From positions 1 to 64,000 of IMG/VR virus record IMGVR_UViG_3300036861_001106: DNA of 64,000 nucleotides, one strand, 5' to 3'. Positions within the stretch are counted from its first letter, which is position 1; each line of letters starts with the position of its first letter. The notes beneath the pieces are model-generated. The model worked only from the letters and a program-made list of their open reading frames with translations. It made no database searches and was not told the origin of the DNA. Below are positions 3,304 to 54,269 of this stretch, piece by piece. A program made the translations under genes and the position numbers. This DNA comes from a virus.

Positions 3304-3537
3304 TCACGGATCATGGGGTGACGTCCTCCCTAGCGGGCAAGCCTCGTCAGAGTGGGGTCGCTCGCTCATCGACAGGACGCCCTTCCCGAGCAGTCACAGC
3401 AGACGTGCTTCGGGGCACACCGCAGACAGACGAGTCTGCGACATTGTCCCTGGCACTTCACGGTCTTCTGTAGCTCAACGATGCGCTTGCAGCAGGAGCA
3501 CGGGACCGGTTCTTCCATTGCACGCCCTTTCTTTCGG

Positions 3538-3930
3538 TCAGTCGTCCGTTTCCTTGCATGTCACTCTGCACTGCTCACAGTACCGGCGGCCGTCCGCCTC
3601 GAAGACCGGGGCCTTGCAGCAGGCGCTGGGCCCTGGCACCCAGTCAGCGTCACGGTGCCCGCAGGCGACGCAGTGCTTGGTGTGGAGGCTGAACCACTGC
3701 TCACCGCAGCGCGGGCAGTCGGCCTCCACGTTCAGGCTGCTGGGGTCGGCGCAGGTTGCGTGCACTGCCCCGTGCACCCACTCCCACCGCCGCGCGGTGG
3801 TGGGCGCCGCGAGGGTCGCGGCCAGCAGCAGCCGGTCACACCCGGCGCAGACGGCTCGCGCCTCCCAGGTGCTCGTGGCGCGGTTGCGGCCGCAGCACTC
3901 GCAGGTGCTCGTCGTGTCGCCCTCACTCAT
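3538..3930 (-). CDS. multi-zinc-ribbon protein
   Basis: several CxxC pairs; C-terminal SACCKAP...DGRRYCEQCR module. Confidence 0.7.
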   Translation of the reverse strand: MSEGDTTSTCECCGRNRATSTWEARAVCAGCDRLLLAATLAAPTTARRWEWVHGAVHATCADPSSLNVEADCPRCGEQWFSLHTKHCVACGHRDADWVPGPSACCKAPVFEADGRRYCEQCRVTCKETDD

Positions 3931-4333
3931 CGTTGTTGCCCTCCCCGTGCGCGTTGCTCCTCGCTGCGAGGAGGTTCCCACACGCGCGGCACAGCAGGCT
4001 GCCTGCAGGGTGGCCGTGGCGGTCGGTGCGGGTGCGGTAGTAGTGTCCTCCCAGTACGTCCCCGCAGCGGGCGCACTGGAAACTCAGGCCCGGGGCTGCC
4101 GCCCTCGCTGCCGCCAGCTCGGCGAGTTGCTGGCGGATGGGGTGCGTCTCCCGCTCAAGGGCCGCGCGCACCGGGGCCTGCTGCGCGTTGGCGCAGTCCG
4201 TGCCCGCGATCTCCCTCGTCCTCGCGGCCCGCAGGCAGTACATGCAGCGGCAGGAGGTTCCCATTGTGCTACTTCTGCAGGTCTCGTGGCTCTCCCGCGG
4301 CCAGCGTTCCTCGGGCCAGTCGTGCATGCTCAT
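3923..4333 (-). CDS. Cys-rich hypothetical protein
   Basis: first gene of the leftward operon; CRCMYC, CARC and CRAC motifs. Confidence 0.65.
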   Translation of the reverse strand: MSMHDWPEERWPRESHETCRSSTMGTSCRCMYCLRAARTREIAGTDCANAQQAPVRAALERETHPIRQQLAELAAARAAAPGLSFQCARCGDVLGGHYYRTRTDRHGHPAGSLLCRACGNLLAARSNAHGEGNNDE

Positions 4334-4372
4334 CGTTCCCTCTCGTTCGTCATCCTCGTTCCTCCTCGCCTT

Positions 4373-4423
4373 ATTCTACCGAAACTTTTGGCAGTTGACA
4401 AGCCCCTGTCAAGTCGGTATCCT
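4373..4423. promoter_or_regulatory. bidirectional promoter with a shared -35 element
   Basis: plus TTGACA(4395-4400)-17-TATCCT(4418-4423); minus TTGTCA(4401-4396)-17-TAGAAT(4378-4373); lies at the strand switch of the genes. Confidence 0.75.
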
Positions 4424-4442
4424 TCAGGTAGGAGGTGTGAAG

Positions 4443-4613
4443 ATGACGAACGACGAAGCAGGACGGCTGGCCGCCAAGTGGCTAGGTTCGAAGCACGAGG
4501 ACACTGGGTGGACCCCTGGCGACCTGCTCCTGCTGCAGCTCCTGGAGCAGGGTGAGCGGCTTCAGGCGCTGCTCGTGCTGATTGAGGCCCACCTTTCTGC
4601 CTGGAGGAGCTGA
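4443..4613 (+). CDS. small hypothetical protein
   Basis: AGGAGG SD; first gene of the rightward operon. Confidence 0.6.
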   Translation: MTNDEAGRLAAKWLGSKHEDTGWTPGDLLLLQLLEQGERLQALLVLIEAHLSAWRS

Positions 4614-7312: not shown

Positions 7313-9754
7313 ATGGCACTCTCACCGACCGGTCGCATCCCCAAGTTGCTGTGGTCGGAGCGCTGGCAGGACACGATTCAGCGCATGCGCACCGACAACC
7401 ACGTGTGGTGGCAGCTCCTCAAGGCCAACGCCGAGAAGACTGGCACCGCTGGCCAGCGGTACGGCGACACCGGCCTCTGGGCCACCATCATGTTCCAGGC
7501 CACGGGGGACAGCGCCTACGCCACCCGCGCCCTGACCCTGCTGCGGCCACTCCTCCTGGACACCGCCGTCAAGAGCGCCAACTGGACGCGCTCCAACGGG
7601 GCGGAGCAGGCACTCCTGTTCGACTGGCTCAACCCGGCGCTCACCGGCGCTGACCGGCAGCTCTACATTGCCGCCCTCAACCGGTGGGCTGACCAGGCGA
7701 CGACGAGCCAGTTCTCCCCTAACTTCCCAATCCGCACTGACGACTCCGACCAGACGGTGGGGAACTACTTCCAGTTCGCCCTGCTGGCGGTGGCCACTGC
7801 CGACGACAACCCGCGGGCGCAGGAGTTCCTGAACCGTTCCTACGTGGGGGGGCTCACCCCCACGGCTGCCGACCGCACCTCCCTGCGGAACGCCATCAGC
7901 GAGTACTGCACGAACCTGGCCGTCGGTGGCATGTGGCCGGAGAGCACGCAGTACAACCACGGCACGCTCTCGCTGCTCACCCTCGGCGTTGAGGCCCTGC
8001 GGCCAGCCACCGCCGTGGACTCCTTTCCCGAGGTCACGGCGCTGCTGCCCGCCCTCGCTGCGTCCCAGCTCTTTGAGGTCACGCCTGACCTGGCCCAGCC
8101 CTTCCAGTGGGGGGACAATGAGAACCCCCGTGACCTGCGGCTGTTCCAGTACGTGACCCTCCTGGGCATGCTGCAGGGGGCCACGCAGTCGAGCCCAGGG
8201 CCGGTGAGTGCCTACCTGACCAGCCTCATCGCTGACTTGGTGAGTCGATTCGGTGCCACCGGCTTTGGCTCGGCGGAGCCCTGGGCCCGGCTGTTCCTGT
8301 TCTACAACCCCTACCGGCTGTCAACTGATTGGCGCACTGCCCCCCGCACCTTCTTTGCCCCGGGGCAGGGCATCCTGATTCACCGCCAGGCGGACCAGCC
8401 GGTCACGGGTGCCCTGCTCGGGGCGCACTTCCGGCCCAGGCAGTCCCTGGTGGACCACCAGGTCAAGTACTTCGGGGACTTCCAACTGTACCGCCGTGGC
8501 GAGTGGGCGCTCACGCATCCGATCGGGTACCAGGGGCCGCCCAACCAGGGCGAGGGCACCAACACCATGCTGCACAGTGGGCTCTCAGCCATGGCGGAGC
8601 GGCAGGTCACGGCGCAGGAGTCGAGCAGGGATGGCGCCTACAGCTACCTTGCCGGCACGACGAGCGGTCCCTACTATGCACCGCCCTACTTCAGCGCACC
8701 CGCGTCGTTCATGGACGAGTGGACCCGGTCCCTGCTCTACCTGCCCGGCACGCCCGGCACGCCCGGCACGCCGGTGGGTGCCACCCCAACTGTCGTCACG
8801 CCCGACGTGCTGATTGTCCATGACCGCGTGAACAGCACGCCGATCCGGGCAGTCGACCTCCCGAGGTACCGCGGTGCTGACCAGGCCCGGATCAAGGCAG
8901 CCAAGCACCCGAAGGAGTGGATCATCCACGCGCCGGTCGCACCCACCGTCACCCTCCAGGGGCTGCAGTGGGTCACCACCAAGGGTCAACGGGTGGCGGT
9001 GGACACCCTGCTCCCACTGGGGCAGGAGCGGGAGGTCATCGACGAGGACACCCTGTGGACGGACACCTACCCCAACCCGGCCAAGTCGGAGCAGAAGTGG
9101 CAGGTGCGAGTTGCACCCACCGTGGACGTGCCGCTGGTGAACTTCCTGAACGTCATCCAGGTTGCCGACCCTGCCGGCAGTGGCACGGTGTTCCCTGCCA
9201 GGCTCGTGGGCGACGCTGACGGTGTGCTGGTGGGCGCCTTTGTCGCGCGGCCCAATCAGCAGGCGGTGCTGGCGTTCTTCCCTGCCAATGGACCAAACCT
9301 GCAGGCGACGCGCCTGACCATCCCGCTGAGTCTCCTTGACGAGCGGCAGGTCGACGCCTACGTGGCTGGAATCGACGTCACGCAGGACTGGTTTGCGGCG
9401 GTGGATGGGAGGTTGGTCACGCCCCTGCGGATCTTTGGCTCCAACCTGCTGCGATTCAGCCTTGCGCTCAAGGAGGGCAGCCACACTCTTGAGCTGGGCA
9501 GTGCCGTGCGGTCCTTGACGTTTAAGCTCTTCGCCGAGGGGCTCACCGGTGGGACCAGTTTCTTTCTGGATGGTGAGCAGCGGTTGAGCTTGACCTTTCC
9601 AACCCTTGCAGAGGCCAAGGAGGTTGCTCAGCGTGCGGTGCGGCTGAACCCGCTTTTCACGCTGGTTGTGGAGGACTTGACCACGCCGGGCACTCGCCGG
9701 CTGCACAAGTACACGCTGGTCATGAACTACGCGGTGGAGGAGGTGCCCTTGTGA
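7313..9754 (+). CDS. heparinase II/III-like (polysaccharide lyase-like) protein
   Basis: helical N-half with GMWPESTQY and DW/WGD motifs; beta-rich C-half with HQ...GDFQLYRRG and LIVHDRV. Confidence 0.55.
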   Translation: MALSPTGRIPKLLWSERWQDTIQRMRTDNHVWWQLLKANAEKTGTAGQRYGDTGLWATIMFQATGDSAYATRALTLLRPLLLDTAVKSANWTRSNGAEQALLFDWLNPALTGADRQLYIAALNRWADQATTSQFSPNFPIRTDDSDQTVGNYFQFALLAVATADDNPRAQEFLNRSYVGGLTPTAADRTSLRNAISEYCTNLAVGGMWPESTQYNHGTLSLLTLGVEALRPATAVDSFPEVTALLPALAASQLFEVTPDLAQPFQWGDNENPRDLRLFQYVTLLGMLQGATQSSPGPVSAYLTSLIADLVSRFGATGFGSAEPWARLFLFYNPYRLSTDWRTAPRTFFAPGQGILIHRQADQPVTGALLGAHFRPRQSLVDHQVKYFGDFQLYRRGEWALTHPIGYQGPPNQGEGTNTMLHSGLSAMAERQVTAQESSRDGAYSYLAGTTSGPYYAPPYFSAPASFMDEWTRSLLYLPGTPGTPGTPVGATPTVVTPDVLIVHDRVNSTPIRAVDLPRYRGADQARIKAAKHPKEWIIHAPVAPTVTLQGLQWVTTKGQRVAVDTLLPLGQEREVIDEDTLWTDTYPNPAKSEQKWQVRVAPTVDVPLVNFLNVIQVADPAGSGTVFPARLVGDADGVLVGAFVARPNQQAVLAFFPANGPNLQATRLTIPLSLLDERQVDAYVAGIDVTQDWFAAVDGRLVTPLRIFGSNLLRFSLALKEGSHTLELGSAVRSLTFKLFAEGLTGGTSFFLDGEQRLSLTFPTLAEAKEVAQRAVRLNPLFTLVVEDLTTPGTRRLHKYTLVMNYAVEEVPL

Positions 9755-25224: not shown

Positions 25225-25253
25225 GTGACTTTGACGGGTGTCGGCGGTATACT
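25225..25253 (+). promoter_or_regulatory. promoter of the structural operon
   Basis: GTGACT-17-TATACT with CGG before the -10; AGGAGG SD follows. Confidence 0.6.
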
Positions 25254-25273
25254 TGGAACAGGAGGATTCCTGC

Positions 25274-26989
25274 GTGGCCGACCCCAACGCGATTGTGGAC
25301 GTCTTTCACGCCCCGGTGCGCCCGCCCACGGTGGCGGAGCGTGCCAGCCTCCTGCGTCGAGTCCGGGTGAAGCTGGCAGAGTTGCTCATTGGCCCGCAGC
25401 CTGCCCCTGGCGCCGCCCCGGCGCCAGTCTTGACCACCCAGACCGGAGCCAGCGACGCCACCTACGCCAGCTTCGGTGACCGCGTCTGGAACGTCAGCTA
25501 CCAGCGCCGCGCCGTGTACTTCGACCTCCTCGACATGGACCGCAACGACCCCATGCTTCACACGGCCCTTTCCATCCACGCGGACTGCACGGTCTGCTAC
25601 GAGGACGTGGCGGTGGACGGGTTCGACTGGACCATGACGCTGAAGAACGAGCGTGCCCAGGACGCGCTGGATGACCTCAAGGAGCGCCTGAACCTGGGCG
25701 CCGAGGTCTGGCAGATCGTGCGCAAGTTCGTGCAGTTCGGGGAGGAGTACCGGGAGGTCGTCGTGGACGACCGCAACCTGGTGGTGGCCTTCAACAGCCT
25801 CCCAGCCTACCAGGTCATGCCCAAGTTCGACGCGATGGGGAACCGCCTCCCCGGCTGGTCACAGCGCCCCGAGCAGCTCGTGGGTGCGCGGCCGATTCAC
25901 CTCGACGAGTGGCAGGTCATCCCCTTCATGTGGGGTCCACGGTGGGGCTACTTCGGCACTGGGCTCATGGCGCCGGCGCGCCGCTCCTGGCGCCGGCTGC
26001 AGAAGCTGGCGGATGGCATGGCCATCGCGCGCATGACCCGGGCCTACGACAAGCTCGTCCACAAGGTGCCGGTGGAGCCCAAGTGGAACATGGCCAAGCA
26101 GTACGAGGCCATTGGTCTCTACCGGCAGAACCTCACCAAGCGCCGGAGTCTCGACCAGGACGGCAACGTCACCCTGCGCGACGACCCCATGACCCCCACG
26201 ACTGAGATCTTCATCCCGGACGACGGTAGTGGCCGCGGGGGCGTGGAGACCCTGGCACTGCAGAACATGCAGTTGATGAACGTGGAGGACCTGCGGTTCC
26301 ACCAGGATGAGATTCTCACCTGCTGCCGGGTGCCGCGGAAGTACCTGAACCTGGTCCTCAAGGGCGCAGCTCTCGGTGATTCCTCCATCATGGCTGAGGA
26401 CATCCAGTTCGCGCGGGTCCTGCGGCAGAACCAGGCGACCCTGCGCCTGGGCCTGCGGCAGCTCGCGCGCGTGGCCCTGCTCCTTCGGGGCTTCGACGCC
26501 GACGAGCTGGGGGTCAACGTCAAGCTGGCCAAGATCAACGTCCAGGACTACCTCACCCAGGCCAAGGTGCAGATGAACCTCGCCCAGGCGGCCAACGTGT
26601 TCGCCCAGACCCTCCTCACCGGTGGCATTGCCCCCGAGATCGTCTACGACCGCTACATGCAGCTCAGCGACGCTGACAAGGAGATCATGCGAAAGTTCCA
26701 GGAGGAGCAGGAGAAGGATGAGCTGGCTGCCCTTCGCAAGGAGAAAGCTGAGGCGGCGAAGCAGCAGCCCCAGAATGGCAAGCTTCCCCGAACCAATGCC
26801 AACGGCGGTGGCGGCGCGCAGCAGGGGCTCCCAACCGCGGAGGAGGTCAGCCAGGTCCTGGCGAAACTTGGCATGATGTGCCAGGAGCTGGCTGAAAAAG
26901 AGGGACTGCAGTTCGATCTGACCTACGAGGATCGCCTGGCCCAGGCCAGGGATGTCATTGCTGAGACTTGCTTGAACGGGAGTCGTTGA
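25274..26989 (+). CDS. portal protein (T4 gp20-like)
   Basis: RKFVQFGE, IARMTRA, IFIP...GGVETL, EDLRF...RVPRKYL, EDIQFAR pattern; first structural gene. Confidence 0.8.
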   Translation: MADPNAIVDVFHAPVRPPTVAERASLLRRVRVKLAELLIGPQPAPGAAPAPVLTTQTGASDATYASFGDRVWNVSYQRRAVYFDLLDMDRNDPMLHTALSIHADCTVCYEDVAVDGFDWTMTLKNERAQDALDDLKERLNLGAEVWQIVRKFVQFGEEYREVVVDDRNLVVAFNSLPAYQVMPKFDAMGNRLPGWSQRPEQLVGARPIHLDEWQVIPFMWGPRWGYFGTGLMAPARRSWRRLQKLADGMAIARMTRAYDKLVHKVPVEPKWNMAKQYEAIGLYRQNLTKRRSLDQDGNVTLRDDPMTPTTEIFIPDDGSGRGGVETLALQNMQLMNVEDLRFHQDEILTCCRVPRKYLNLVLKGAALGDSSIMAEDIQFARVLRQNQATLRLGLRQLARVALLLRGFDADELGVNVKLAKINVQDYLTQAKVQMNLAQAANVFAQTLLTGGIAPEIVYDRYMQLSDADKEIMRKFQEEQEKDELAALRKEKAEAAKQQPQNGKLPRTNANGGGGAQQGLPTAEEVSQVLAKLGMMCQELAEKEGLQFDLTYEDRLAQARDVIAETCLNGSR

Positions 26990-33151: not shown

Positions 33152-36100
33152 TTGCCCTACGCCAGGACCAGCGAGCTGCCAGAGGGTGTCAAGGGTGCCC
33201 TGCCGAAGCGGGGTCAACGCATCTTTCGCGCTGCGTTCAATGCCGCTCACCGCACCTACGGTGGCAATGAGGAGCGGGCCTTCAAAGTGGCCTGGGCGGC
33301 GGTGAAGCGCGTCTTCAAGAAGAAGGGTGGCAAGTGGGTCAAGGCCAGCCAGTCTGATCTGACCACCCAGCAGCTCCTCCTGGACACGCAGCGGCTCTAC
33401 CAGGAGCACTGGCGCCGCAACCCCGAGGCGCTGCCTGCCCAGCGCACGGTCAACGACCTGCTGGCGCAGGTGGCAGCCAACCCGACACAGGACTTGCGAC
33501 TCCTGCGGCAGCTTGAGGGGCTCGGTGTCCCGTACTTTGACTTCGAGGCGCTTGTGCAGTCATACGCGAATCCAATGCCGTGTGCGCCTCACACCGATGA
33601 CTTTCCCGGCTCCCTGGACCACCGCATCCGGCGGGTGTGCTGCGCCGTGCGGGATGAGGGCGACGAGTACCTGGGCGAGTACGGGTACGTGCTGGCAGTC
33701 TACCCCAACTTCGCCGTCTGCTGCTCCCTGGACGAGGGCGATGAGGACACTGACTACTGGAAGGTTGACTACACGTTCAACCCGACGACGTTTGAGGTGG
33801 CACTGGGCGACGCCCAGCCGGTCGAGGTCCTGACCGTCGTGGTGCCGCATGAGGGGGAGGCGATGGAGACACCAGAGCGCGAGGGCCTGAACATCGGCGG
33901 GACTCAGACCGTGGTCGACCAGGAGGCCAAGTTCAAGACCGACAACGGTCAGCAGTTCTCCCGAGGTGCCTACCTCATCATCGGCGACCCTGACCTCCCC
34001 TCGACCTGGAAGGTGCGCGTGGAGGAGACGCCGGGCAAGGTGACGGTGCCGCAGCTTGGGCGTGCCTACGCAGCCCTGACCAAGGGCTTTCGGGGCAACA
34101 AGGTTGCAGCCTCCGGCGGTGACAAGTCGGCGGCGCTGGGCAAGCTCAAGTCGCTCTACAAGTCGCACGACGCCGAGTGGCCCGGTGACAAGCAGAGCGT
34201 GGCGCCTGACCTCACGGGGGCCTTGAACCAGGACCCCCAGTGGACCACCACGCCCACCTGGCTGGCCCAGGGGCAGCCGCCGCCGGGCGGGGACGAGGAC
34301 CTCGTCCAGACCTGCGCGCTTGAGCTTGAGCAGGTGGAGGTGGACAAGCAGACGGGAGTCATGCACATTCGAGCCTGCCTCACCGTCGGGAACGTCCTGA
34401 ACGCCATGGGGGAGGTCTACCCGACGCAGGTGTGGGAGGACAACCTCCCCTTCTTGCAGACAGCCGCCGAGCAGGGGGCGCTCCTCGGCGAGTCCAACCA
34501 CCCACCGCCGGGTGAGTCATCCCTGGACCGCTCCTGCATCCTCTGGGATGAGGTGTGGCTTGAGGGTGACCGGCTGATGGGCGCTGGTCGCGTGCTGCCC
34601 ACGGTGCCCTCTGGGCAGAACCTGCAGATGCTCCTGCAGCACGATGCCAAGGTGGACGTCTCCTCCCGGGGCAAGGGCACGCGCAAGCAGGGCGACTGGG
34701 TCAACCCCACCACCGGCGAGCGGTACCAGGATGCGTTGGTGATCCAGCGTGGGTACCGCTGCCGCACATTCGACGCTGTCGGGTCCGGCGCCTCGCCGGG
34801 CGCGACCATCACCACGCACGAGATGGCGCAGCAGGCCGACCTTACTGCTGAGGAGCACGACATGAAAGAGATCGAAACCCTGTCGCAGCAGGTCCAGGCG
34901 CAGGCTGCGACCCTCGCGCAGATCACCGAGACGCTGGCGAAGCTTGCCGCACCCCCGCCCGCCCCGACACCCCCTGCGGCGGGCGCTGCCACCGCCGCGC
35001 TGGATGTCCCGGTTACCGCACCAGCCACAGCAGCACTGCAGCAGGCAGCCCCGGACTTCGTGGCTACCCTCACCGCGGTGGCTGCGCAGCAGGAGCGGAT
35101 GATGCCCCTCCTGCTGGAGGAGCGCAAGCGGCAGCTCCTGGAGCAGGCGCGCACGGAGCACAAGCTCCCGCAACAGTGGCTCAACTCCTACCGCAACATC
35201 CTCAACGAGGGGCAGTGCAAGTCCATCGCGGAGCTGGAGGCGCACTCCGAGCGCATGCTGCCGGCGGTGCTCTCGATGTACAAGGAGCGCCCGCAGTTGG
35301 CGCACGGCTTCCAGGTCCAGCAGGACCCTGGGGAGCGCCCTGGCCCGAAGACCCCCCGGCAGATGATTGACTTCCTGGTCAAGGACGTGGACGACACGGT
35401 CCTCTACGACCCACAGAGCTTCATCCGGCAGGATGATGAGACAGGTGCGCCGGTGCACGCACCCGACTCGGTGAAGACCCGGCGGCGCCAACTGCGGCAG
35501 ATCCTGCTGAACATCGCCCAGCACCAGGATGACAACTGGAATGGCCCTGCTGCGCTGACGGCGTTTGTGCGGCTCTACCAGGGCTACGACCCCATCCAGG
35601 TCAAGGATGCATGGATGGACCAGGCCTGCGCTGACTGCACCACCTCGGTGGCAGCCGGTGGCGCGCCCTCCAGCGCGCTGTTCATCTTCCCGCTGGTCCG
35701 GGCGGTCTACCCGCAGCTCATCGCGCCGGAGATCGCCTCTATCCAGCCGATGGACCGGCCTGACGGGCGCATCTTCTTCCTGAATGCGTTCCGGTGCCCA
35801 GTGCCGGGCATGGACGTGGTGGACCAGTCGGGGGCCACGATCTCCAACCGGATGTTCATGGACCGCAGCTCGTCCTTCAGCTCGTCCTTCGCGGATCGCG
35901 CGGCTGAGTGCGACGAGGCGGCGAAGATCCAGCTCCGGCTGGCCTCCGTGTCGGTGACGGCGACGACCAAGGCCCTCACCTCCATCAACACGATTGAGGA
36001 GCTGCAGGACCTGCGGGCCTACCATGGGCTGGACGTGAACACCGAGCTGATGTCAGCCCTCTCCCGGGAGATTGCCCTGGAGTGGAACCTCACCGTGCTC

Positions 36101-36646
36101 AACGAGATGGTCGCGGGCGCCACGGCCAGCGCACGCTTCTATGGCACCAACGCTCCCACTGGCTACACGCAGAAGGAGTGGGCGGAGTACCTGCCGCGCT
36201 ACATCGACGCGGTGAGCATGGACATCTTCTCCAAGCGCCACGGCAACGCGACGCACGTCATCGCCGGGCCGCAGGCCATCCTCCGGTTGGGCGCAGCCTA
36301 CCGGCAGCCGGTGCAGCCGACGGGGGTCAATCCGCAGGTCTACCCCGGCCTGGCCGTGACGCCCTGGCTGGCTGGCACCAGCGCTGACATCAAGGTCTAC
36401 CAGACGAGCTTCTGGACAGGGGTGAACCAGAACACCATCCTGGTCATCCGCCGGGGTGCCGACTGGTCGGACACGGGGTACGTGTTCGCCCCCTACATCG
36501 ACTACATCGCGCCCCTCCTGACGCTGCCGGACACCTTCACCCAGAAGCAGGGTGTGATGTCCCGTGCAGCGCACCGGGTGGTCGTGGGTGACACCATGGG
36601 CACCATCACCATCGTGCCGGGTGACACCGGCGTTGAGGTGCCGTAG
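33152..36646 (+). CDS. polyprotein: ChaB domain, T4 gp21-like prohead protease, scaffold and T4 gp23-like major capsid protein
   Basis: ChaB (PY...LP..VK..LP..GQRIF.AAFN...AWAAVK); protease LGESNHP, VSSRGKG, TFDAV; MCP PLVRAVYPQLIA..IASIQPM..PDGRIFFL, ELQDLRAYHGLD, LS.EIALE.N, FAPY. Confidence 0.88.
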   Translation: MPYARTSELPEGVKGALPKRGQRIFRAAFNAAHRTYGGNEERAFKVAWAAVKRVFKKKGGKWVKASQSDLTTQQLLLDTQRLYQEHWRRNPEALPAQRTVNDLLAQVAANPTQDLRLLRQLEGLGVPYFDFEALVQSYANPMPCAPHTDDFPGSLDHRIRRVCCAVRDEGDEYLGEYGYVLAVYPNFAVCCSLDEGDEDTDYWKVDYTFNPTTFEVALGDAQPVEVLTVVVPHEGEAMETPEREGLNIGGTQTVVDQEAKFKTDNGQQFSRGAYLIIGDPDLPSTWKVRVEETPGKVTVPQLGRAYAALTKGFRGNKVAASGGDKSAALGKLKSLYKSHDAEWPGDKQSVAPDLTGALNQDPQWTTTPTWLAQGQPPPGGDEDLVQTCALELEQVEVDKQTGVMHIRACLTVGNVLNAMGEVYPTQVWEDNLPFLQTAAEQGALLGESNHPPPGESSLDRSCILWDEVWLEGDRLMGAGRVLPTVPSGQNLQMLLQHDAKVDVSSRGKGTRKQGDWVNPTTGERYQDALVIQRGYRCRTFDAVGSGASPGATITTHEMAQQADLTAEEHDMKEIETLSQQVQAQAATLAQITETLAKLAAPPPAPTPPAAGAATAALDVPVTAPATAALQQAAPDFVATLTAVAAQQERMMPLLLEERKRQLLEQARTEHKLPQQWLNSYRNILNEGQCKSIAELEAHSERMLPAVLSMYKERPQLAHGFQVQQDPGERPGPKTPRQMIDFLVKDVDDTVLYDPQSFIRQDDETGAPVHAPDSVKTRRRQLRQILLNIAQHQDDNWNGPAALTAFVRLYQGYDPIQVKDAWMDQACADCTTSVAAGGAPSSALFIFPLVRAVYPQLIAPEIASIQPMDRPDGRIFFLNAFRCPVPGMDVVDQSGATISNRMFMDRSSSFSSSFADRAAECDEAAKIQLRLASVSVTATTKALTSINTIEELQDLRAYHGLDVNTELMSALSREIALEWNLTVLNEMVAGATASARFYGTNAPTGYTQKEWAEYLPRYIDAVSMDIFSKRHGNATHVIAGPQAILRLGAAYRQPVQPTGVNPQVYPGLAVTPWLAGTSADIKVYQTSFWTGVNQNTILVIRRGADWSDTGYVFAPYIDYIAPLLTLPDTFTQKQGVMSRAAHRVVVGDTMGTITIVPGDTGVEVP

Positions 36647-50922: not shown

Positions 50923-50935
50923 CGGGAGCTGAGCT

Positions 50936-51307
50936 GTGCCAGCGTCACTGAGAATGCTCGACAGCGACGAGTCCACGGTCATCACGACGTCCGATCAGGG
51001 GAACGTGCCGACCCCGGGCTCGTCCACCGCCAAGAAGTTCTTCGTGCAGAACTTCGGCACCTCGACAGCGGAGGACGTCGTGGTCACGATCGAGGCAGTG
51101 GGGACCAACGACGGGGCGGACTACACGCAGATCGCTGCGGATGTCGCGGGCTCGCCGGGGACGTTCAGCCAGAGCGACGTCAACCTGGGCGACATCGCTG
51201 CCTTGGACGACGCACCCTTCTGGGCGCAGATTGTCCAGCCGAGCGGCCTCACCGCTGACAACAATCCCCGGCGCAGCAGCCTCGTGGCGTCGGGCACAAC
51301 CGTCTAG
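50936..51307 (+). CDS. putative virion protein (Ig-like, acidic)
   Basis: FVQNFG..TA..V.V, VNLGDI; GC3 bias. Confidence 0.55.
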   Translation: MPASLRMLDSDESTVITTSDQGNVPTPGSSTAKKFFVQNFGTSTAEDVVVTIEAVGTNDGADYTQIAADVAGSPGTFSQSDVNLGDIAALDDAPFWAQIVQPSGLTADNNPRRSSLVASGTTV

Positions 51308-51314
51308 GAGCACC

Positions 51315-51575
51315 ATGGGCAAGCAGGCTACGGACGTCGACGTCAAGACCACCACTGTTGAGCGCCACCTGGACCAGGCGACGGCGGACGCGCATGAGCT
51401 GGTGCCGGGCGACTGGTGTGTCCTCCTGAACGAGGAGGGCTTCGAGACCGGGCGGTGGGGCATCGTGTGCAACTCCCTGCGCAACACCGCGCACACCCTG
51501 GAGGTGCGGCTGGGGGCTGACCCGATCCGCACCTTCCCGCGCCGCAAGCTGCGGTGGCTGGGGCCGTTGGACTAA
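51315..51575 (+). CDS. small SH3-like hypothetical protein
   Basis: LVPGDWCV...WGIV...VRL. Confidence 0.55.
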   Translation: MGKQATDVDVKTTTVERHLDQATADAHELVPGDWCVLLNEEGFETGRWGIVCNSLRNTAHTLEVRLGADPIRTFPRRKLRWLGPLD

Positions 51576-51585
51576 AGGAGAGGCA

Positions 51586-52161
51586 ATGGAGCGACGGGAC
51601 CTGTTTCGCAAGGCACTTGGCGCGGTTGCTGGCACAGCCTCGGCGCTGCTGGTGGGCCGCTACGTTGACCCGCCGGTGAGCGTGGCACGGCTGGAGGCGA
51701 CAGCCCTGGCGCCAGCCACGTTGGGGTTCTCCAGCCCGCCGCTTGAGCCGGGCAGCGTTGAGTGGTACTTTGCGGACGGCACCCTGAAGGGGACCACCGT
51801 GGTGCCCATCATCAATTACAAGGAAGATAGTGATCGCTACTTCATCCTTGCTGGTCACGTGCCGGCCATGTTGCTGGGCCACTGGTCCAAGACCCGGGTG
51901 CTTGACGTCGGTCTTGCCTGGACGTACTTGCACGGTGAGCGCGGTGACCTGACCCTGGGTGTGCCGGCAACTGGTCCGCTGGCCCCGGGGACCCTCTTCA
52001 TGTGGGCGGAGGGTCCGGCGGCTGGCCGCTGGGGCGTCGTGACCAAGCCCTACCTGCAGTTGCCAAGCATCCAGCGCCATCTGGCGGACGGGAACTTCGA
52101 GGCGATGCTGGCCACCGAGGAGGGTCGTGTCCTCCTCGTGCACCGCAGCCAACTGGGCTGA
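51586..52161 (+). CDS. protein with Tat-like N-terminus
   Basis: MERRDLFRKALGAVAG twin-arginine pattern; AAGGAG SD. Confidence 0.6.
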   Translation: MERRDLFRKALGAVAGTASALLVGRYVDPPVSVARLEATALAPATLGFSSPPLEPGSVEWYFADGTLKGTTVVPIINYKEDSDRYFILAGHVPAMLLGHWSKTRVLDVGLAWTYLHGERGDLTLGVPATGPLAPGTLFMWAEGPAAGRWGVVTKPYLQLPSIQRHLADGNFEAMLATEEGRVLLVHRSQLG

Positions 52162-52172
52162 GGGAGACCACC

Positions 52173-52340
52173 ATGACACTCAACCTGCTGCAGACTGTCG
52201 ACGCCCCGGAGAAGCCCATGGACCCGACGGCCCCGTGGTGGCCCAGGGAGGAGCCCCTGGCGCCGCCCACGGAGCCGGACGTGCCCTACGAGGCGCCGCC
52301 GGCGGACGATGAGCCGGACGACGATGAGGATGACGACTAG
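52173..52340 (+). CDS. small Pro/Asp-rich protein
   Basis: GGGAG SD, ATG; acidic tail. Confidence 0.5.
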   Translation: MTLNLLQTVDAPEKPMDPTAPWWPREEPLAPPTEPDVPYEAPPADDEPDDDEDDD

Positions 52341-53203
52341 CCGAAGCGGAGCTGGTCCCGGTACTTCGGGAGCGCCAGGTAGTGGTCCAGGACCCGCTGG
52401 CGCTTCCGGGGGAGGTAGATCGTGGCCCCCTCGTAGAGGAGGTTCACGATGGGGAGGCACTGAGCGTTGCCGTGAAACTGCAGCTTCCAGGCGGTCTTGC
52501 TGTTCTTGGCAGCGACGGTGTGACCACCAATCTCTGGTAGTTCGATTTTCAGATACTCATGTGCAGCCTTGGCAAATGCTTCGGTGGACACGATCTTGAT
52601 GGCGGCGTTCGGTGGGCATACCCCATCCTTGCGAGGGCGATTTCCAGCCTGGGATCGAAACATGCCGTCGCCGTCGAAGTAGCCGCGAAGATAATGCGGC
52701 TGCAAACGCCACGAGATGAAGTGCCAGGTAAGCTTTGTCGTCTTTCCTGGTATGATGCCAAATTTCTCAACATCTCGTAGAAGGTTGACCGAAACCAATG
52801 CGAGCCGGCTCGTGGGGTGTCCATTCGCAAGGTAATGGTACAGGGGATTTTCACACTCTGTGTCTCTCCTGAAAGACTCCAGGTGATCGGCATCTTTCGA
52901 TGAAAGATTTACGATTACAGAGTTTCTCTGCGGACAGGCGTAGCCGTCTGCAGCAAGGAAACCAAGCCAGTAGGCTTGGCGTTCAGTCTCAATTGAAGAA
53001 AAGTAGCCTTCATTGAGGCTGAACTTTCGCTGGCAAGCTGATCGGTCGCGCCTAGTTATGCCTGCCATTTTCAGACAGGCGTAGATTGGCATCTCTGAGC
53101 AGCCAAACAAAGCAGCGAGTTCGTAGGCGCTCTTGCCCTCTCGGTAGAGACGGCAAACGACTTCCTTCTGACATTCTGTGAGATGGCCTCTGTAGTTGCT
53201 CAT
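52337..53203 (-). CDS. free-standing double-motif LAGLIDADG homing endonuclease with N-terminal HTH
   Basis: AYWLGFLAADG and HYLRGYFDGDG; lower GC; opposite strand to the operon. Confidence 0.92.
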   Translation of the reverse strand: MSNYRGHLTECQKEVVCRLYREGKSAYELAALFGCSEMPIYACLKMAGITRRDRSACQRKFSLNEGYFSSIETERQAYWLGFLAADGYACPQRNSVIVNLSSKDADHLESFRRDTECENPLYHYLANGHPTSRLALVSVNLLRDVEKFGIIPGKTTKLTWHFISWRLQPHYLRGYFDGDGMFRSQAGNRPRKDGVCPPNAAIKIVSTEAFAKAAHEYLKIELPEIGGHTVAAKNSKTAWKLQFHGNAQCLPIVNLLYEGATIYLPRKRQRVLDHYLALPKYRDQLRFG

Positions 53204-53208
53204 ATCGG

Positions 53209-53237
53209 AGTCTACAGATTTTGTCTCCAAATGTCAA
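53209..53237 (-). promoter_or_regulatory. promoter for a leaderless LAGLIDADG mRNA
   Basis: TTGACA(53237-53232)-17-TAGACT(53214-53209), 5 nt before ATG at 53203. Confidence 0.7.
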
Positions 53238-53295
53238 CTGGCTGCCACGACTTTTTGCGGGAGCGTGGCTAAAAAGTGAAAGGAGGTGCGGTCTC

Positions 53296-54269
53296 ATGGC
53301 CGCTACCTTTCTCGTGGAACCAGCGTAACGGAGCGAGCGGCACGGCGACAGACCTCGGATCAAGCGGAAATTTGGCTTCAAGAAGTTGGCCCCTCGCGTA
53401 GGAATGCGTGAGTGAAAACGGCGTGAATTGCGGGAAGCCTACAGCGAAGGCCATGGTAATCCGCAGCCAAGCTCGACAGGGCACTGGTTGTCGAGAAGGT
53501 TCAGAGACTAGAGGGTGAGTCCCAACAATAAGCCCTCCACGAGCGCGCCGCACCCAGATCGGGTGATGAGATAGTCCAAGCATCGGGGAAACCCGGTGAA
53601 CTAGAACTTCAAGACCACGGACACGACGGGGATTGGAGATTACGCCGCGAATCCGGTCTCAGCCGGCTCGAACTCAATGGAAGTCGTACTGCGGATGCAC
53701 TTCACAGGGTCTGCGGCCCCTCCAGCCTGAAAGGGCTGGTCGTGATGGCGTGAATTCGGGGAAGCCTACAGCGAAAGCCATGGTAATCCCGACCCAAGCT
53801 CTCCAGGAATGGTGAGAAGGGCTAGAGACCAGAGCAAGTAGACGAGACCCGTCGAACGCTCCACGAGCGCGCCACACCCCTCGGGGTGATGAGATGGTCC
53901 GACACTCCGTGGAAACGCGGAGAGCCTTGGATAAAGAGCCAAGGTGTAACTGGTGCCTTCAACCGCATCGCCGACTTCCGATTCTGGCAATCGACGGCGT
54001 TCTCGCCGTCCACCGGCTTGCAGGTCTTCTGGTCCGGCACGCAGGTCATCTACCTGCAGCCGACCACCGGCACGTCGTCCATCGCCACGTCGTCCATCCC
54101 GACGACCGACCCTGGCACGGCGAACGTCAGCGTGGGTGGCTCCCTGACCGGATGCCTGACGACATCTGGTTTTACGGACCACATCTACCTTCAGCTCAGG
54201 ACTGCGTCCAACGCTGCGGCAGGTGACACATCGCTCGGAACTTTCACGGGCAGCTACACTGAGAACTAA
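53296..54269 (+). CDS. putative virion protein in three exons (53296-53377, 53605-53710, 53956-54269); needs a +1 shift at ACC TTT C
   Basis: AGGAGG SD; joined product ~166 aa: MAATFSWNQRNGASGTATDLGSSGNLA/NFKTTD...RMHFTG/SFNRIADFRFW...YTEN. Confidence 0.75.
53378..53604 (+). ncRNA. group I intron 1 (227 nt, ORF-less)
   Basis: P AATTGCGGGAA, Q AATCCGCAGC, R TCAGAGACTA, S GAGATAGTC; P1 GGCU/GGCC with U-G; P10 GAAGUU/AACUUC; terminal G. Confidence 0.92.
53711..53955 (+). ncRNA. group I intron 2 (~245 nt, ORF-less)
   Basis: P AATTCGGGGAA, Q AATCCCGACC, R CTAGAGACCA, S GAGATGGTC; P1 GGGU/GCCC; 3' site G53955 (alternative G53952). Confidence 0.88.

Follow-up and report, generated by a model that had tools for sequence, protein, structure and literature searches.

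The locus examined here raises the question of whether a single phage gene is interrupted by two closely spaced self-splicing introns and, if so, how two such introns came to share it. It lies on an IMG/VR virus record of 109,530 bp with direct terminal repeats, the first 64 kb of which (64,000 nucleotides, about 68% GC) were analyzed and are referred to as the window. A reading made from the sequence alone had proposed a hidden gene split by two sibling group I introns that contain no open reading frame (ORF) and lie 106 nt apart. In agreement with this proposal, the ORF list at the locus contains exon 3 alone (ORF 53886-54269), and the exon between the introns measures 106 nt. The features discussed below are collected in Table 1.

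Table 1. Features of the window and intron insertions in relatives of the split gene; ^ marks an insertion or splice site.
Feature	Location	Strand	Remarks
Shine-Dalgarno AAGGAGGTG and start ATG 53296	53280..53298	+	From the sequence; homologs begin MAATF
Exon 1	53296..53377	+	82 nt against 81 expected; an extra T shifts the frame after MAATF
Predicted group I intron 1	53378..53604	+	227 nt, ORF-less, phase 0, site GNLA^NFK (site B)
Exon 2	53605..53710	+	106 nt; NFKTTD...RMHFTG plus the first base of a Ser codon
Predicted group I intron 2	53711..53955	+	245 nt, ORF-less, phase 1, site FTG^S (site C)
Exon 3	53956..54269	+	TAA stop 54267-54269; homologs and profile match
Predicted free-standing LAGLIDADG homing endonuclease gene	52337..53230	-	Longest frame 297 aa; PF14528, phrog_4645
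T4-like portal gene	25238-26989		Late region
S77 prohead-protease and Gp23 capsid matches, one open frame	33152-36646
L074, two group I introns (92 and 43 bits)	After MAAT^F and after FNKI
L062 (91.5 bits) and L061, HNH-encoding intron	4 nt downstream of site B
L069, HNH-encoding intron	4 nt downstream of site C		HNH ORF 3504-4002

Joining 53276-53377 to exons 2 and 3 produced a single open frame. A search with exon 3 retrieved 93 homologs, most of them 164-170 aa long and uninterrupted, with identities of 48-86% and E values down to 1e-46. The joined protein is collinear with about 90 of these intron-less relatives, and alignment with the 19 homologs displayed was gap-free at both junctions (GNLA^NFK and HFTG-S-FNR), consistent with the junctions TTGGCT/AACTTC and ACAGGGT/CCTTC that had been proposed. 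A profile built from 33 homologs matched just three pieces of the genome, corresponding to profile positions 5-27 (53309-53377, in the other frame), 27-63 (exon 2), and 55-166; the genome thus has one copy of the gene, divided just as had been proposed. Splicing would be expected to join 53377 to 53605 and 53710 to 53956, restoring the frame. One relative, L037, carries two tandem paralogs of the 166-aa gene (3484-3981 and 3995-4498), which are 40% and 50% identical to the joined window protein.

The further claim, that removal of both introns leaves one continuous frame to 54269, was not confirmed for a frame that begins at 53296. The frame across the three exons is open from 53271 onward, where its first start is GTG 53276, without a Shine-Dalgarno sequence, whereas the frame entered at ATG 53296, which has the perfect Shine-Dalgarno sequence AAGGAGGTG 8 nt before it, reads MAATFLVEPA and stops at TAA 53326-53328. 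Homologs begin MAATF-x-W-x-Q-R-N-G, while in the window the continuation SWNQRNG sits in the +1 frame, with ACC TTT C TCG TGG in place of the expected ACC TTC TCG TGG. The window therefore carries one extra T within 53308-53310, and with this T removed the gene comprises exactly 166 codons. As assembled, the frameshift in exon 1 would reduce the product to a 10-residue peptide. The sequence-only reading had overlooked this +1 frameshift and, in that finding, the adjoining endonuclease.

The one-base insertion at codon 5/6 would represent either an assembly error or a recently inactivated allele. That the gene is a true pseudogene with a genuine frameshift, and its introns decaying relics, is a possibility that we place somewhat below even odds. 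The extra T follows codon 5, an in-frame TAA comes five codons on, and the sole in-frame upstream start is GTG 53276, which has no Shine-Dalgarno sequence. Moreover, no further frame breaks were found when window positions 45-60 kb were checked against the ORFs of about 80 related loci (about 15 kb of flanking genes; a comparison of low power, with flanks of about 5 kb), which argues against an indel-prone assembly. Yet the gene is single-copy and conserved at 48-86% over exon 3 in about 90 relatives, apart from the extra T the introns and exons are all intact, the helices being fully paired, and homopolymer lengths are often miscounted in assembly or consensus building.

Two other accounts of the exon 1 sequence were set aside. 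Programmed +1 frameshifting at UUU C is unlikely: the Shine-Dalgarno sequence stands about 20 nt upstream, no homolog has the shift, and CUC, the codon that follows, is not rare at such a high GC content. A native start at GTG 53276 was rejected because this codon lacks a Shine-Dalgarno sequence and the homolog N-terminus MAATF fits ATG 53296. We also observed that the extra T coincides exactly with the position of an intron in the distant relative L074 (L074:3659-3672), after ATGGCTGCAACAT (ACC T / ACA T, codon 5); this may be a coincidence within a T-run or the scar of a past insertion or cleavage.

Searches with the Rfam group I model RF00028, whose curated cut-off is 50 bits, matched intron 1 at 53369-53598 with 79.4 bits, above the cut-off, and intron 2 at 53701-53922 with 46.7 bits, about 3 bits below it (E 1.7e-10 in a 1.1-kb local search). 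No other RF00028 match was found in the whole 109.5-kb genome. The score of intron 2 falls just under the cut-off, and its group I membership therefore rests on its covarying core helices. Covariation was assessed in an alignment of four sibling introns, namely the two window introns, intron 2 of the relative L076, and the L020 intron. RNAalifold recovered P3, P4, P5, P6, P8, and P9 unaided from these four sequences, with 22 of 42 pairs doubly changed. When P7 was added as a pseudoknot, the structure contained 47 pairs, 98.9% of them canonical and 24 changed on both sides. None of 500 shuffles reached any of the five measures, and slid 3′ partners paired at 34-40%. Such a four-sequence covariation signal is what an RNA selected for the group I fold would give.

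The compensatory changes read earlier between the two window introns (P4 UGCGG/CCGCA versus UCGGG/CCCGA; P7 GACUA/UAGUC versus GACCA/UGGUC; P3 CGGCGUG/CGCGCCG versus UGGCGUG/CGCGCCA) are present and hold in the four-sibling alignment. P5 proved near-identical as described, with the P3-P5 block 88% identical between the two introns. Taken together, the model matches and the covariation support two complete group I cores. Sequence and short folds agree with the U-G 5′ splice sites and terminal Gs that had been claimed for both introns, which terminate in ...CUAG (intron 1) and ...GGUG (intron 2); the U.G pair in P1 and the final G were found in each, and the junctions are fixed independently by protein collinearity. 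Intron 1 has P1 GGCU/GGCC with the U.G wobble at the splice site, and the perfect 6-bp P10 attributed to it is formed by the first six bases of exon 2, AACUUC, with GAAGUU just 5′ of the guide. Intron 2 has a minimal P1 (GGGU^C/GGCCC, 5 bp with a triloop) and an extra P9.1-like hairpin; no P10 was found for it in the sequence or in short folds. Stop codons follow soon after each 5′ splice site, and J8/7 with its flanks (CCACGAGCGCGC) is invariant across the sibling introns. These features indicate that both are real, protein-less group I introns of a sibling pair, as the sequence-only reading had it, and self-splicing is predicted for each.

To characterize the split protein, we combined profile, structure, and sequence searches. 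The exon 2 and exon 3 products had no match in Pfam or PHROGs, and tblastn of the split-gene protein against 50,697 deposited phages found nothing. An AlphaFold2 model of the homolog P0008, based on 33 sequences, reached a pLDDT of 90.7 and showed an all-beta sandwich, for which Foldseek returned no match at E <= 1e-3 in the PDB or BFVD. The highest Z in a wide VIA-align comparison was 6.5, for pilin- and Ig-like sandwiches, and falls within the background range; a search of the ESM Atlas returned unnamed viral clusters alone. A tail tube or pilin identity was not adopted; the fold resemblance is at background level.

The genome setting provides a further indication. A methyltransferase and glycosyltransferase cassette lies downstream of the capsid region in the window, and the positions of portal, capsid, and cassette therefore place the split gene in the late, co-oriented part of the genome. 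The earlier designation as a putative virion gene has the late-module position, downstream of the T4-like portal and Gp23-like capsid genes, as its only basis, and from position a virion role is plausible. The capsid frame itself runs for 1164 codons uninterrupted, with ChaB, prohead protease S77, and Gp23 major-capsid matches in series, and would be either a fusion or a set of adjacent genes without stops between them in high-GC DNA.

Gene order in the relatives examined is GT9, a gene of about 125 aa, and the 166-aa gene, with a gene of about 260 aa next in several. The window matches the ~125-aa gene at 50933-51304; in relatives such as L005 and L020 this gene is directly upstream of the 166-aa gene, and in L005 an endonuclease alone separates the two. 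In the window, 51305-53295 represents about 2 kb of extra sequence, which comprises the endonuclease and ORFs 51586-52161 and 52002-52340, both of native GC and without a family match.

We then considered how the introns are distributed among relatives of the gene. The 166-aa family was found at 72 IMG/VR loci and on a few metagenome contigs, and most copies are uninterrupted. Assignment of intron sites in the interrupted relatives by collinearity (Table 1) revealed at least seven insertion sites in a gene of about 500 nt, and the family is an intron hotspot. The locus attracts several nuclease families. In L062 (3376-3990 and 4492-4959), an HNH ORF lies within the intron and a further free-standing HNH gene directly follows the 166-aa-family gene.

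The closest readable relative of the split gene is L076 (a JGI contig of 1.7 kb), with 80% identity between its exon 3 and that of the window. Its intron 1, cut by the contig end, is a sibling of window intron 1 at the same site B. After a 60-nt exon, its intron 2 (L076:1-455 spans this arrangement) is a sibling of window intron 2 and lies near NPITA^GNNS (site D), a site unused in the window, while site C of L076 holds no intron. For L076 intron 2 and the L020 intron, the splice sites are fixed to within a few bases, with U at -1 and a terminal G not jointly fitted; the site of L076 intron 2 may be C-G.

These relatives bear directly on the origin of the pair. The two window introns show 79% mean column identity when aligned pairwise and 68% in a five-way alignment. 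Intron 1 and L076 intron 1, at the same site, are 80% identical overall and 92-100% identical in P6-P8; the nearest relative of intron 2 in P6-P8 is L076 intron 2, at a different site (70-82%). Only in P3-P5 are the window introns closest to each other. Each window intron is thus nearer to an L076 intron, so that the two lineages predate this genome, and the local intron duplication suggested by the sequence-only reading is not supported. A recent duplication within this genome could account for a P3-P5 block more alike than that of any other sibling and for the guide block GGCCCCUC common to both introns, but it is very improbable given an overall five-way identity of just 68%, the L076 counterparts of intron 1 at the same site and of intron 2 in P6-P8, and the presence in L076 of an intron at another site with none at site C. 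The P3-P5 likeness is better explained by possible gene conversion, that is, homogenization between two resident introns.

A second possibility is that the family spreads by reverse splicing into transcripts with a GGNU guide match, with subsequent reverse transcription and recombination. The guide block is identical in the two window introns, which sit after GGCU and GGGU, lineage-beta siblings in close relatives occupy sites that differ by 48 nt in the spliced coding sequence, siblings are found in many unrelated late genes, and the five fully read siblings (two in the window, two in L076, and one in L020) have no room for an ORF. A guide-exon match, however, is needed after any DNA-level insertion too, so this match is not diagnostic of reverse splicing, and endonuclease genes are plentiful at the locus. 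Support for reverse-splicing mobility in general is circumstantial, with no direct experimental evidence (PMC3984707). We therefore regard this route as unlikely, and we are equally doubtful of its more specific form, in which an ORF-less family of 210-260 nt colonizes late or structural genes and moves between nearby GGNU sites by guide-directed reverse splicing. If that form were true, the window and L076 alleles, with sites B, C, and D and a common guide block, would constitute a natural test of RNA-mediated group I transposition.

The nuclease gene beside the introns offers another route. It is a predicted LAGLIDADG homing enzyme, matching PF14528 with 28.5 bits (cut-off 22.5) and phrog_4645 with an E value of 6.7e-45 over residues 14-282; its single chain contains two motifs, LGFLAADG and LRGYFDGDG, as members of the LAGLIDADG family do. 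The gene is divergently oriented and begins 66 nt upstream of the ATG of the split gene. Its GC content is 50-57% against about 68% in the flanks, and the block 52.4-54.0 kb as a whole has 50-61% against 65-73%. Its homologs include P0095 (52%) and P0096 (50%); P0096 originates from an NCBI contig of 4587 nt, as does P0002, the closest homolog of the split gene (86%). Exact endonuclease peptides had no match in IMG/VR.

Several observations concern the endonuclease itself. Its cluster representative from another source, P0094, has 288 aa, which would match a start at ATG 53203. A sigma-70-like site at 53209-53237 on the minus strand (TTGACA-17-TAGACT), the sole one in 3 kb, lies within the first codons of the longest endonuclease frame; its second hexamer ends 6 nt before ATG 53203, and the endonuclease mRNA may therefore be leaderless and start there (288 aa). 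P0094 is 100% identical over 97% of its length and was recovered in a different assembly (Logan, a 39,456-nt contig), in which no exon 3 product identical to that of the window is on record; it would reflect either a second assembly of this phage or a nuclease gene transferred recently.

When ORFs of relatives were compared with the window by tblastn, an endonuclease ortholog was identified in L005. It has 374 aa, is 31% identical, and shares the C-terminal ...PKYRDQLRFG, and it occupies the same slot in the same orientation, between the ~125-aa and 166-aa genes. The 166-aa gene of L005 is intron-less; the nuclease is therefore free-standing, conserved in its slot, and independent of the introns. 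The two introns begin 148 and 481 nt from the endonuclease start, and a break made by the nuclease could thus co-convert them.

Strict collaborative homing, in which cleavage of intron-less alleles by the LAGLIDADG enzyme falls exactly at one intron insertion site and a genome is shielded by the intron that it carries, has known counterparts: an ORF-less intron pairs with a free-standing endonuclease in the psbA intron and F-CphI of cyanophage S-PM2 and in the nrdA intron and free-standing HNH of Aeromonas phage Aeh1 (PMC3984707), and T4 mobE is a further reference for such homing (PMC2790892). The block in the window resembles these pairs in arrangement and also has foreign GC, but the L005 ortholog adjoins an intron-less gene and two introns stand against one nuclease, which makes this strict version quite unlikely.

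The intron family extends beyond this gene. An exact IMG/VR search with the 31-nt P4-P5 block common to both window introns found no match, while a pattern derived from the invariant J8/7-P3′ and P7′ blocks identified 26 IMG/VR contigs. A profile of the four siblings located introns in 24 of these 26, the weakest scoring about 30-41 bits (L101, L113) in two separate pieces. According to PHROGs, the flanking exons belong to major head proteins of three families (L099; L104/L101; L095/L089), a tape-measure protein (L112), and an unknown family (L090). L099 (2252-4115, minus strand) has a single major-head-protein gene (phrog_283, E 2.5e-55) interrupted by three sibling introns, of which the first and second are about 92 nt apart. 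The L020 intron (2226-2484; 54 bits with Rfam, 80 bits with nhmmer) lies just 5′ of, and overlaps, the start of a GT9 heptosyltransferase-like frame, about 1.5 kb upstream of an intron-less 166-aa gene. The flanking head and tape-measure exons thus indicate that the family favors late genes and that multi-intron genes recur.

Among the 50,697 deposited phage records, the sole sequence-level match was in Bacillus phage Tavor_SA (KY963369.1, about 9240-9496; L087), which matches the intron 2 core at 78% over 123 nt. The match fills a 257-nt gap separating two CDS both named tape measure, and the gap is therefore probably an unannotated group I intron. Tavor_SA differs from the window in having a single intron, in another host gene and another phage group.

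Taken together, these results are best explained by a conserved late gene, present in a single copy and encoding an all-beta protein of 166 aa, into which two compact ORF-less introns of one family, derived from two older lineages, have been inserted. The pre-mRNA would splice itself twice by guanosine-initiated transesterification, guided in intron 1 by P1 GGCU/GGCC and P10 and in intron 2 by P1 GGGU/GGCC. The suggestion of the sequence-only reading that double splicing gates a late protein was not supported. The introns have no mobility gene of their own, and the low-GC block also holds the free-standing LAGLIDADG endonuclease. Spread would most likely proceed through a double-strand break made by this or a similar nuclease in naive genomes during co-infection, with nearby introns co-converted. 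We assign a probability of roughly 80% to this explanation as a whole, that is, a twice-spliced late gene with two older intron lineages and nuclease-driven co-conversion. The presence of sibling introns in other multi-intron late genes supports it.

The closest precedent is the tail tube gene orf142 of Staphylococcus phage Twort, which contains three ORF-less group I introns and shows exon skipping (Landthaler & Shub 1999, cited in PMC11878797). Both loci combine several small, related ORF-less group I introns with a short late or structural gene and very short internal exons. With two related ORF-less group I introns in one short late gene, where the Twort orf142 type has at least two, the window presents an arrangement of a known kind. 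It differs from Twort in having two introns rather than three, in belonging to an uncultured phage of about 68% GC with T4-like portal and capsid genes, in its host gene, which represents an uncharacterized 166-aa beta-sandwich family, in the free-standing endonuclease that adjoins it, and in that its splicing is predicted. Unlike in Twort, loss of exon 2 by skipping would disrupt the frame, since its 106 nt are not divisible by 3.

Few phage genes are known to contain several introns, and the majority of the phage introns documented lie in DNA-metabolism genes (PMC11878797). The multi-intron genes of the Bastillevirinae, which are DNA polymerase, terminase, and RNR genes, have introns that average about 800 nt, many of them with ORFs (PMC11878797). 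They share with the window two or three group I introns per gene and small internal exons, and skipping has been reported for them; in contrast to their DNA-metabolism setting, the introns of the window family are 210-260 nt long, ORF-less, and placed in late or structural genes. Compared with the collaborative homing pairs, the nuclease here is a LAGLIDADG enzyme, a family outside those commonest in phage introns (PMC3984707); it lies divergently upstream, and its ortholog is also found beside an intron-less allele.

What is added to these systems is a new host gene family, a hotspot pattern, and a compact intron family that favors structural genes. A small conserved late gene is a hotspot for introns and endonucleases, and the same intron family splits major-head, tape-measure, and glycosyltransferase genes of further uncultured phages. 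Since gene callers recover mere fragments of genes of this kind, the structural genes of uncultured phages are under-annotated. Where close relatives hold related ORF-less introns at different positions in one gene, they provide material to separate nuclease-driven from reverse-splicing mobility, in an arrangement for which Twort orf142 is the nearest known counterpart.
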